A DNA stretch of 64,000 nucleotides from a virus. Positions 41,262 through 43,458 of the stretch are shown piece by piece. A program made the translations under genes and the position numbers. Every line of letters starts with the position of its first letter. Within the stretch, counting starts at the first letter, position 1. The notes under the pieces were generated by a model. The model was not told where the DNA came from, ran no database searches, and worked only from the letters and a program-made list of their open reading frames with translations. Location: the IMG/VR virus record IMGVR_UViG_3300025437_000010, positions 46,199 through 110,198 of that record, one strand, 5' to 3'.

Positions 41262-41778
41262 AGCATTAATCCCATCAAAACGAGATATTAAGTTTGCTGG
41301 ACAAGTTTCACTTTTATGCATAGCCATGATGGTGATCGCACTCCCGGTTATACTTGCTGTAGGGACCGCCTTCCTTGGTATTTGTTACCTTATTACTTTC
41401 TTTTTGGGTAGTTATGTCACAAATGTATTCGTATACGTTTTGGGCATATCGTGGTTTTTGTGGATTATGTTCGGTGATACAGTAATGAACAGATACCAAA
41501 ATAATCTCCAAAAAATTAAGGACAAGTAAATGGCAGAAGATCAAAAATTTATCATGGTTGTGATTAGTGTTGTAGTCTATTTATTCATAGCATTTTCTAC
41601 AACACTGACAAATGCCGGTGAGGACATTCATCCTCTTATGGGTGTCTGGTGGCCAATTCTTCTTGTTAGAGAATTATGGAAGTCATTTTATAAGCATGTC
41701 ATCTGTGAAAAGTGGTATTGAATCTGCTTGACAATAGATCGGTTATTTGTTATATTTGTTCTTTAGAAAGGATATAAC

Positions 41779-41800
41779 ATGACCCGTATCGCTATCCGAC
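41779..41800 (+). pseudogene. Relic of the original 5' end of the metallophosphoesterase gene
   Basis: TTGACA(41728)-N17-TATATT, AAAGGA RBS, then ATG ACC CGT ATC GCT ATCCGAC = MTRIA..SD, matching (L)RVAIASD downstream. Confidence 0.6.
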
Positions 41801-42439
41801 ATATGTCGCAGAATATCCTTTGATTTTAGGATGCTTGGATGTTGTTCCATCACGCAACACACCATATATTAGATGAAATGGTAATCCCAATTCTTTACAA
41901 GTATGTCTAAGATTCCCAAAACATTCTATTTTTTTGCCTAAAGGATCAACAATAAGTATCCGTCTTGCTCTGGGATTATTTTTTCCAGAGTTATCTTTAC
42001 CTTTAAAGTTTGCAGATCGTTTCTTCTTAAGTTCATCGGCTTTTTCTTTACCATATAGTTCTTCGTATGATTTACCTTTAAACCTATCTGTAGCAACTTT
42101 TCCTTGTGCCGCTTTCACCTCATCTGTGTGAGTTTTTCCGTACATACCGTTGCCCTCCCCTCGCGCGCCACCACCGTCGCCGTATTCTTCTTTAAGATTA
42201 GCCCACTCTTTACTTTCTACTACATTCCACAAAGCACTGTAATATAGCCCCCATTCCCTAACTTCTTCGTTAGTTTGACATTCTCGCAGGATTTCCGTAG
42301 TGACATCATATCCATGTTTTTTTATATGGTTTTGCCATCTTTTGCCGGAACCTTTATATTTATGTGGGTCTTGTGTAGTTTTTCCGAGGTAATTGAGACC
42401 GGTTTTGTTATGGGTCTTCTTGTACAAATAAATAGTCAT
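41792..42439 (-). CDS. Free-standing GIY-YIG (Seg-like) homing endonuclease
   Basis: IYLYKKTH...YLGKT...YKGSG...W...ANLK; NUMOD3-like GMYGKTHTDEVK; late promoter ATAAATA (42502-42508, minus) and AAGGAG RBS. Confidence 0.9.
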   Translation of the reverse strand: MTIYLYKKTHNKTGLNYLGKTTQDPHKYKGSGKRWQNHIKKHGYDVTTEILRECQTNEEVREWGLYYSALWNVVESKEWANLKEEYGDGGGARGEGNGMYGKTHTDEVKAAQGKVATDRFKGKSYEELYGKEKADELKKKRSANFKGKDNSGKNNPRARRILIVDPLGKKIECFGNLRHTCKELGLPFHLIYGVLRDGTTSKHPKIKGYSATYVG

Positions 42440-42636
42440 TGCTGATACTCCTTAACAGTATTAGAGGGGATGGGCATTGCGAGTGCCGCGATCCTCACTT
42501 TTATTTATCTTTTTCGTTGACATCAATTAATTTTGATGTTATAATCAATCTATCATTTAACAAAGGAATCATAATTATGAATCAGAAAGGAAAAGGTGTC
42601 GGAAGTTTGCGTGTTGCAATTGCTTCCGACCTTTAG
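41801..42636. mobile_element. Homing cassette: GIY-YIG gene, divergent promoters and replacement 5' end of the target gene
   Basis: Bounded by TCCGAC (SD) on the left and CTC CAC (LH) on the right, i.e. inserted inside metallophosphoesterase motif I. Confidence 0.65.
42517..42545 (+). promoter_or_regulatory. Consensus sigma70 promoter for the metallophosphoesterase
   Basis: TTGACA-N17-TATAAT. Confidence 0.85.
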
Positions 42637-43458
42637 CTCCACTTGGAATTTGAAACCATTACTCTTCCAAACACAGAAGGAGCAAAGGTTCTTATCCTTG
42701 CAGGTGATATCGTGACTGCATATGCACTTCATGAGAACCCACACCCTATCATTCCTCCAGCAGAACATGTCATCTGGAAGCCAAGTAAAGGCCAACAATT
42801 GGCTATGCGTTTTCGTGAATTCTTTAACCATGTAAGTGCTGAATATGAACATGTAGTTTACGTTGCTGGAAATCATGAGTTTTATCATGGTAAATATCCC
42901 GATGCATATGACTGGCTTCGTGAAGAAATGAAAAACTATCCAAACATTCATTTTCTTGATCACGATAAAGTTGAAATTGATGGTATCACTTTCCTTGGCG
43001 GCACACTTTGGACCGACATGAACAAGCGCGATCCATCTACGCTGCAGTTGATTGAAGGCATGATGAATGACTTTCACATTATTCGTAATAGTCAGCAGAA
43101 CTACCGAAAGTTTCTTCCTGTGGACGCGGTAGCACATCATGCGTCTACTTTGGGATATATCAGACAGACGGTTGATGCTGATCCGAGCAAGCAATATGTC
43201 GTAATAGGACATATGGCTCCTACTCCCTTGAGCATTCATGCAAACTACAAAAACGATTACTATATGAATGGTGGATATCATAGTGATCTGTCTGAATTTA
43301 TTCTTGATCGTCCTCAGATTACTCATTGGTTCCATGGACATGTTCATAACCCATTTGATTATATGATGGGTGATACTCGTGTTGTGTGTAATCCGCGTGG
43401 GTATAAAGGGCACGATCCCAATGCTGATCTGTTTCAATTGAAGTTTTTGGATATTTGA
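42577..43458 (+). CDS. Calcineurin-like metallophosphoesterase with in-frame TAG (CTT-TAG-CTC) in motif I; candidate ribosomal stop-hop
   Basis: MNQKGKGVGSLRVAIASDL*LHLEF; all later motifs intact: LAGDI, AGNHEFY, TLWTD, GHMAP, HGHVH, NPRGY. Confidence 0.8.

Follow-up and report, generated by a model that had tools for sequence, protein, structure and literature searches.

The window, by which we mean the whole 64,000-nucleotide stretch of viral DNA that was analysed, contains a metallophosphoesterase gene whose original beginning has been severed from the rest of its coding sequence by a cassette carrying a homing endonuclease gene. The relic promoter of this resident gene (41728–41756, forward strand), TTGACA-17-TATATT with 11 of the 12 consensus positions, still stands in front of the relic start codons (41779–41796, forward strand), which read MTRIAI from the ATG at 41779. 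The initial annotation had described the relic start as lacking the N-terminal extension found further downstream, and this is what the locus contains: the relic has its own promoter, no added codons and no hairpin arm. Where the relic start meets the 3′ end of the endonuclease gene lies a perfect 12-nt palindrome, CGACATATGTCG (41797–41808), which has CCGAC in common with the 3′ arm of the hairpin described below and could be the left edge of the insertion.

The endonuclease gene (41792–42439, reverse strand) is an open reading frame of 215 amino acids that matches PHROG 314, “homing endonuclease,” with an E-value of 2e-13. Judged by eye, its N-terminus is GIY-YIG-like; the protein also gives a weak NUMOD3 match, and its top homologue is 83% identical across residues 1–156.

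Beyond the endonuclease gene, the phosphoesterase gene has a replacement 5′ end, all of it on the forward strand. A sigma-70-type promoter (42517–42545), TTGACA-17-TATAAT with a TG before it, matches 12 of 12 consensus positions and is followed by a ribosome-binding site and an ATG at 42577. From this ATG run ten added codons, MNQKGKGVGS (42577–42606), which are placed ahead of the ancestral start position, now a TTG at 42607, the position at which all 80 nearest homologues start.

The first frame from ATG 42577 comprises 19 codons and ends …RVAIASDL, its last Leu codon, CTT (42631–42633), being followed by an in-frame TAG (42634–42636). After this stop the same frame resumes as LHLEFE…, with a second Leu codon, CTC (42637–42639), and then CAC, to give a complete metallophosphoesterase, of which the remaining frame (HLEFE…, 42640–43458, with its stop at 43456–43458) is intact and matches Pfam Metallophos with an E-value of 2.4e-8. 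The 6-nt insert, which can be written as TAG CTC or equally as CTT TAG, interrupts the D-x-H metal motif, and a Pfam scan of the read-through translation gives an alignment without the N-terminal motif. In the reading developed here, CTT would be the take-off codon, TAG the coding gap of a putative 6-nt hop, CTC the landing codon and CAC the codon at which decoding resumes. The cassette would then comprise the homing endonuclease gene, the replacement 5′ end and the stop-containing insert, which together would have invaded motif I (SDLHLEF).

A hairpin next to the in-frame stop

The final three of the added codons also form the 5′ arm of a hairpin. The initial annotation had pointed out that GTCGGAAG (42598–42605, within the codons GTC GGA AGT for V-G-S) pairs perfectly with CTTCCGAC (42623–42630, within GCT TCC GAC for A-S-D), and the second is exactly the reverse complement of the first. 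A ninth pair, U42606·G42622, completes the main helix, whose 5′ arm (42598–42606) and 3′ arm (42622–42630) both lie on the forward strand; the 3′ arm is formed by the codons A-S-D and ends with GAC, the E-site codon, so that the helix stops one base before CTT. RNAfold also returned the two extensions that the initial annotation had described. At the base, AAGG (42593–42596, forward strand) pairs with CUUU (42631–42634) with U42597 bulged, a lower stem that takes in the whole take-off codon plus the initial base of the stop. At the top, UUGC (42607–42610) pairs with GCAA (42616–42619) to close the apex (42607–42621, forward strand), which includes the ancestral start TTG (42607–42609).

The 53 nt from 42588 to 42640 fold with a minimum free energy (MFE) of −21.9 kcal/mol (z = −4.4), compared with −10.8 ± 2.5 kcal/mol in shuffles, none of 200 being as stable. 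About 20 other 53-nt places in the 64 kb are equally stable, which puts the hairpin in the top 0.12%, and perfect 8-bp inverted repeats with loops of 3–20 nt occur 78 times in the window, compared with about 29 expected in first-order random sequence of the same size and composition. Given some 29 such repeats by chance and some 20 equal folds, the window by itself is suggestive, and it is the related cassettes that set the hairpin beyond chance. The hairpin is absent from the output of a terminator scan of either strand and has no match in Rfam, and its identification as an intrinsic terminator or as an Rfam element was rejected because neither scan reports it.

Related cassettes and the probable decoding across their stops

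Among viral contigs we found 278 phosphoesterase relatives, and in all 80 of the nearest, which were compared, SDLHLEF is uninterrupted and the protein starts M-[KR]-[IV]-A. Interrupted genes were identified with three patterns. The first, a degenerate S-D-x-TAG-x-H-L-E-F run on viral and metagenome contigs, matched 7 viral and 24 metagenome stretches, which are interrupted phosphoesterase genes in 7 of 7 and 16 of 24 cases, respectively; the remaining 8 metagenome matches lie outside phosphoesterase genes and were set aside as chance. Every genuine phosphoesterase match of this stop pattern has arm complementarity. The second pattern required both arms and specified nothing after GAC, and all 14 of the viral stretches that it matched contain a stop insert. 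The third, a TAA/TGA version of the stop pattern, gave 47 matches, of which only L226 (TAA) is a real cassette, 45 belong to one unrelated conserved sequence family and 1 is chance. Those 45 viral contigs (L200–L246) have a conserved sequence in common whose match to the TGA pattern is in a closed frame; it is an unrelated family, probably a gene on another frame or strand.

In bacterial genome contigs the stop pattern gave chance matches only. Near and distant DNA searches of an annotated phage collection returned only short matches, at 79–80% identity, and at the protein level the best relatives in that collection are about 36% identical; an exact 21-mer search of the viral contigs gave no match. 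The site recurs in many environmental jumbo-phage contigs.

With 20 more from viral and metagenome contigs, the window brings the number of distinct cassettes to 21. All of them have Leu-stop-Leu, as CTN-stop(s)-CTN, inside SDLHLEF. The gap is TAG in 16, TAA in L226 and TAG TGA in L192, L193 and L194, the double-stop form reading CTT TAG TGA and then CTT or CTC; in L196, CTC is followed by an 8-nt frame-changing gap, TAGTGAAA, then by CTA and an intact frame of 289 amino acids. Gap lengths are 3, 6 or 8 nt, with matching hops of 6, 9 or 11 nt. The take-off codon is CTN throughout and CTT in 18 of 21 cassettes, compared with CTT in 4 of 64 intact homologues, and the Ser codon of A-S-D is TCC in 19 of 21 cassettes versus 2 of 64 intact genes. 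The second frame is full-length (248–306 amino acids) in 18 of the 19 cassettes in which it could be checked. In L172, at about 1990–2005, an extra 1-nt frame change lies some 59 codons into the second frame, which might reflect misassembly, decay or a further site of recoding.

A short Leu-to-Leu hop that restores D-x-H would fit all of these insert forms. The +1 frame is closed at the stop, and the phosphoesterase frame resumes 6 nt on in the window and 9 or 11 nt on in relatives. Readthrough, restart, a change of code and pseudogene decay are all poor accounts in light of the insert forms, the full-length second frames, the lack of restart codons and the lack of sense TAG. Restart at TTG 42643 was rejected, as this codon is TTA, CTC, CTT or CTA in relatives, and several relatives have no possible restart codon after the stop.

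We regard it as barely credible that the stop is read through, whether by a suppressor tRNA, by near-cognate decoding or under a reassigned code, with the hairpin stimulating the readthrough. Such a process would suit a phage in which TAG is a rare stop (it ends 3 of the 111 open reading frames of at least 120 codons on the whole contig, with TAA ending 76 and TGA 32), and it would keep the frame for the 6-nt TAG form alone. Its product, however, would read D-L-X-L-H instead of the invariant D-x-H, relatives place two different stops, TAG TGA, consecutively, and the 8-nt gap of L196 changes the frame ahead of an intact one. The frames beyond the three TAG-terminated long open reading frames run for 3–17 codons, and no tRNA genes were found on the 110-kb contig, which is about 30% of a genome. 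On the strength of these two observations, together with the double-stop and frame-changing variants, code reassignment and a suppressor tRNA were rejected.

It is also very improbable that the endonuclease insertion killed the gene, leaving a pseudogene with no recoding and with a hairpin owed to chance and shared descent. Inverted repeats of 8 bp are not rare at about 29 expected per 64 kb, and the additional 1-nt frameshift of L172 would agree with decay. Against this, 18 of 19 cassettes have a full-length downstream frame although their proteins are down to about 40% identity, the Leu codons on either side of the stop and an in-frame replacement start have been maintained, the helix has undergone compensatory changes, and the cassette occurs in at least four to five lineages.

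Conservation and spread of the hairpin

A helix ending at the base before the take-off codon is present in 20 of the 21 cassettes, with 8–13 pairs and a median of 9. In the 80 intact homologues, by comparison, the best such helix has a median of 3 bp and a maximum of 7, the 9-bp helix is absent, and the median MFE is −4.3 kcal/mol versus −22.9 kcal/mol in the cassettes. The structure is conserved, it covaries, and it is associated exclusively with stop inserts.

Covariation in homologous cassettes, which the initial annotation had named as a check, was counted in 17 in-register sequences, aligned without gaps on a coding-frame anchor and with no fitting to structure, and the outcome was positive. 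In this alignment 143 of 144 main-helix cells are paired, and three helix positions have changed on both sides, from G-C to A-U, from A-U to G-C and from G-C to A-U. Double-change cells number 9, compared with 3.4 in shuffles, of which none in 500 reaches 9; when the 3′ partner is shifted by one to three columns, pairing falls from 89.7% to 50% or less; and RNAalifold independently returned the same 9 pairs. By our own count, about five to six independent compensatory events lie behind the covariation. The sequences from L162, L171, L177 and L178 fell out of helix register in MAFFT and are absent from the formal pair count. An anchored table of our own that includes them uses the best register for each and is therefore biased towards pairing; these out-of-register sequences add compensated types, in L177 (AGCC/GGCT) and in L162 (G-C to A-T).

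The most conserved base pairs are those closest to the take-off codon. Lower-stem pairing is retained in most relatives, in one of two registers, and the apical pairs vary or break among relatives and lie outside the RNAalifold consensus. Third-codon positions are free in the loop and undergo only pairing-preserving changes in the arms. G·U is present among the helix cells and A·C never, as would be expected if the pairing takes place in sense-strand RNA and not in DNA.

The distance from the helix to the start varies, from upstream of the start codon to 28 nt downstream of it. The 5′ arm of L171 is part of the 5′ UTR, where it also serves as the ribosome-binding site (GGAGG) of a retained ATG, and a leader frame there terminates in an ATGA overlap; in L192 the leader that crosses the arm is out of frame because of a 1-nt deletion. 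Both still use the ancestral ATG as their start, and where an in-frame upstream ATG exists the ancestral start is often TTG, CTG, TTA or ATT. That the added codons were selected as RNA structure, as first proposed, is supported by this persistence of the arm when untranslated or out of frame, by the helix and its compensatory changes, and by the absence of such a helix from uninterrupted homologues. Since the arm is kept when untranslated, the added codons would serve as RNA, which speaks against a specific contribution of the K-rich nascent peptide that had been suggested alongside. Wherever the RNA differs between cassettes, the peptide differs too. First-frame peptides have between 9 and about 21 or more residues; in L162, L171 and L192 the first frame is instead the 9-residue M-x-x-x-x-A-S-D-L.

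The hairpin could also have been selected for another purpose, such as initiation control, leader coupling, mRNA stability or ribosome spacing, with the hop proceeding at a basal rate; this we consider unlikely. It might, for example, mask the ancestral start and its Shine-Dalgarno-like AAGGTG, given that both TTG 42607 and AAGGTG (42593–42598) lie inside the window structure, that the arm of L171 is itself a ribosome-binding site with an ATGA-overlapping leader frame, and that an out-of-frame leader crosses the arm in L192; moreover, L162 keeps its insert despite a weak helix. Yet the 80 intact homologues have the same initiation need and none has such a helix, the 3′ boundary of the helix stays at the base preceding the take-off codon in 20 of 21 cassettes whereas the distance from helix to start is variable, and conservation is highest in the pairs nearest the take-off codon.

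The weak helix of L162 belongs to the closest relative of the window gene and endonuclease (L162/L175), which has a TAG insert, an intact gene and a 6-bp helix of −10.7 kcal/mol (z = 0.0, non-significant). A strong hairpin would therefore be helpful at most and not indispensable. L162, a form without the extension, has, close to the predicted 5′ end of the phosphoesterase transcript and within its 5′ UTR, a separate perfect 7-bp hairpin, ATACAGT…ACTGTAT.

An endonuclease open reading frame lies directly upstream in all 8 viral loci examined, and a quick tree places the insert-bearing genes in at least four to five phosphoesterase lineages. A 79-nt block (42574–42652) is 85–90% identical between genes whose proteins are about 40% identical; this identity, the scattered tree positions and the differing endonucleases together indicate that the cassette is mobile. 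The neighbouring endonucleases are GIY-YIG-like in either orientation, with the gene co-oriented with the phosphoesterase gene in L164 and L166, and in L161 (8101–8607, reverse strand) the hop block sits beside an HNH_3+AP2 endonuclease (Pfam E-value 1.6e-16). As the same block stands beside different nucleases in L161, L164 and L166, it either outlives them or is common to them. In L163, at about 440–450, a relic start ATG AAA ATT with a GAGGAA ribosome-binding site is found at the endonuclease 3′ end, and its likeness to the relic start of the window implies that the cassette has inserted within the opening codons of the resident gene on more than one occasion. Six further relatives with 62–70% protein identity (L145, L126, L086, L134, L140 and L138) have a related endonuclease nearby and motif I uninterrupted. 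Their Ser codon is mostly AGT, not TCC, with TCG in L134 and L138, and these differences may be target-site variation that avoids cleavage.

The inverted repeat could instead act in DNA, as part of an endonuclease recognition or immunity site, as a recombination structure or as a passively inherited scar of fold-back repair. The repeat does lie within a 79-nt block that looks like a co-conversion tract, and the insert sits in a conserved catalytic motif, a typical homing target. We nevertheless find a DNA-level role improbable: the same block occurs beside unrelated endonucleases, including the HNH_3+AP2 protein of L161, the tolerance of G·T and the exclusion of A·C fit sense RNA and not duplex DNA or a cruciform, and compensatory double changes speak against a passive scar. 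Because the cassettes share ancestry, the association between hairpin and insert could be linkage within one co-converted block.

Proposed role of the hairpin and known systems

We assign a probability of about 60% to the reading in which the hairpin is a sense-strand RNA element that refolds behind the ribosome and thereby biases a forward hop of 6–11 nt. We infer both the hop itself and the causal role of the hairpin in it from sequence comparison. As the insert splits D-x-H, the full enzyme would be made only if peptidyl-tRNA-Leu hops, leaving CUU while the stop occupies the A site and re-pairing at the next CUN, which lies 6 nt further on. As the helix 3′ strand covers positions −9 to −1 of the take-off codon, it would be held unpaired by the ribosome at take-off, and the 5′ strand would by then already be free behind the ribosome. 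The helix could re-zip first into the E-site region and next across the take-off codon itself, which would loosen codon-anticodon pairing, pull the mRNA forward by the hop distance and hinder its return. The N-terminal extension would carry the 5′ arm 18–28 nt from the start codon, a distance at which the ribosome-binding site would not be buried.

In an occlusion model in which the ribosome holds 6–12 nt upstream of the P site, passing from take-off to landing releases a median of −14 to −2.5 kcal/mol of folding energy in cassettes, and an equal advance about −1 kcal/mol in intact homologues, the closest distance to the P site at which an mRNA hairpin can zip being an assumption of the model. 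With a 0-nt spacer, the lower part of the helix would form only after the ribosome has moved on.

A broader proposal, to which we give even odds, is that these loci form a family of natural mobile hops of 6–11 nt that have an E-site-abutting hairpin as their sole dedicated stimulator and have been spread by several unrelated homing endonucleases, the cassette spoiling the target and yet keeping the enzyme gene working. If so, a homing endonuclease can enter a catalytic motif and leave the gene functional, and the bypass signal would be a minimal and portable one that dispenses with the gap hairpin and nascent peptide of T4 gene 60. If the hairpin drives the hop, it would offer a testable system of about 60 nt for how exit-side mRNA pairing yields directed movement in the absence of codon-anticodon pairing. 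Caution is also due in annotation, as a short frame and a headless enzyme gene beside an endonuclease may be one gene.

To our knowledge, natural efficient bypassing has few examples, namely T4 gene 60 and its homologues, yeast mitochondrial elements and candidate actinophage terminase sites. T4 gene 60 resembles the cassette in its matched take-off and landing codons, in a UAG right after the take-off codon, and in an insert that moves together with a homing endonuclease and splits a conserved coding site (Huang 1988; Bonocora 2011; bioRxiv 10.1101/2022.08.31.505936). By analogy in these features, the matched codons, the stop and the endonuclease-borne insert, the cassette may work like a miniature T4 gene 60. 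The dimensions differ, however, with a coding gap of 3–8 nt here versus 47 nt in T4 gene 60 and a hop of 6–11 versus 50 nt, and gaps of 3, 6 or 8 nt leave no room for a gene 60-type A-site/take-off stem-loop. The nascent-peptide signal of gene 60 has no conserved counterpart here, the first frame being down to 9 codons, and the gene is a metallophosphoesterase (Pfam Metallophos) rather than a topoisomerase and the tRNA one for Leu rather than Gly. No homology to the gene 60/topoisomerase element was found, the interrupted gene being a Metallophos gene and Rfam giving no match. Having no long gap, gap hairpin or peptide signal, and residing in a different gene, the cassette falls outside the gene 60 family.

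The initial annotation had likened the hairpin to the 5′ stem-loop of T4 gene 60, and the analogy proves loose. Its idea of a hairpin that refolds behind the ribosome is plausible, and pairing of the exiting mRNA has been proposed as a forward driver in gene 60 (bioRxiv 10.1101/2024.12.09.627546). The details part company: the gene 60 stem-loop lies 9 nt before the take-off codon (bioRxiv 10.1101/2024.12.09.627546), whereas the helix here lies 0 nt from it, and the gene 60 stem-loop is unconserved among gene 60 homologues (bioRxiv 10.1101/2022.08.31.505936, section 19), whereas the helix here is conserved with covariation.

The proposed decoding is closer to that of synthetic stop-hops, in which, as proposed here, matched codons surround a stop and a single amino acid is specified by 9 nt. 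Among the constructs first made by Weiss and colleagues in 1987 was reportedly CUU UAG CUA, the commonest form found here. The synthetic stop-hops in E. coli (Weiss, Dunn, Atkins, Gesteland 1987) are characterized in a 2016 review as artificial, of low efficiency and without stimulators, and natural in-frame stop-hops are given there as not known (PMC5009743). Our full-text searches of the literature found no published natural stop-hop and no bypassing in a phosphoesterase gene. In contrast to the synthetic constructs, the site described here occurs in nature and has been conserved within a catalytic motif, together with a conserved hairpin.

For the geometry of the stimulator, the nearest parallel is prfB (RF2), where, as proposed here, CUU occupies the P site, a slow stop the A site, and peptidyl-tRNA-Leu is driven forward by an upstream duplex at or into the E-site codon. 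Forward (+1) slippage at CUU-UGA on E. coli ribosomes is stimulated by a stable hairpin upstream that refolds by the E site when decoding of the stop is slow (PMC6321510), and a refolding hairpin can replace the prfB Shine-Dalgarno duplex on 70S ribosomes (Huang, Cho and Chang 2018, PMC6321510). The duplex geometry in the window is of this type, with the 3′ strand of the helix (42622–42630) ending at −1 from CTT. Unlike that of prfB, the duplex is intramolecular and takes in the E-site codon itself, and whereas prfB slips by +1 onto UUU, re-pairing here would occur 6, 9 or 11 nt on at a non-overlapping CUN. By analogy, then, the decoding would match that of the synthetic stop-hops and the geometry of the stimulator that of the prfB class.
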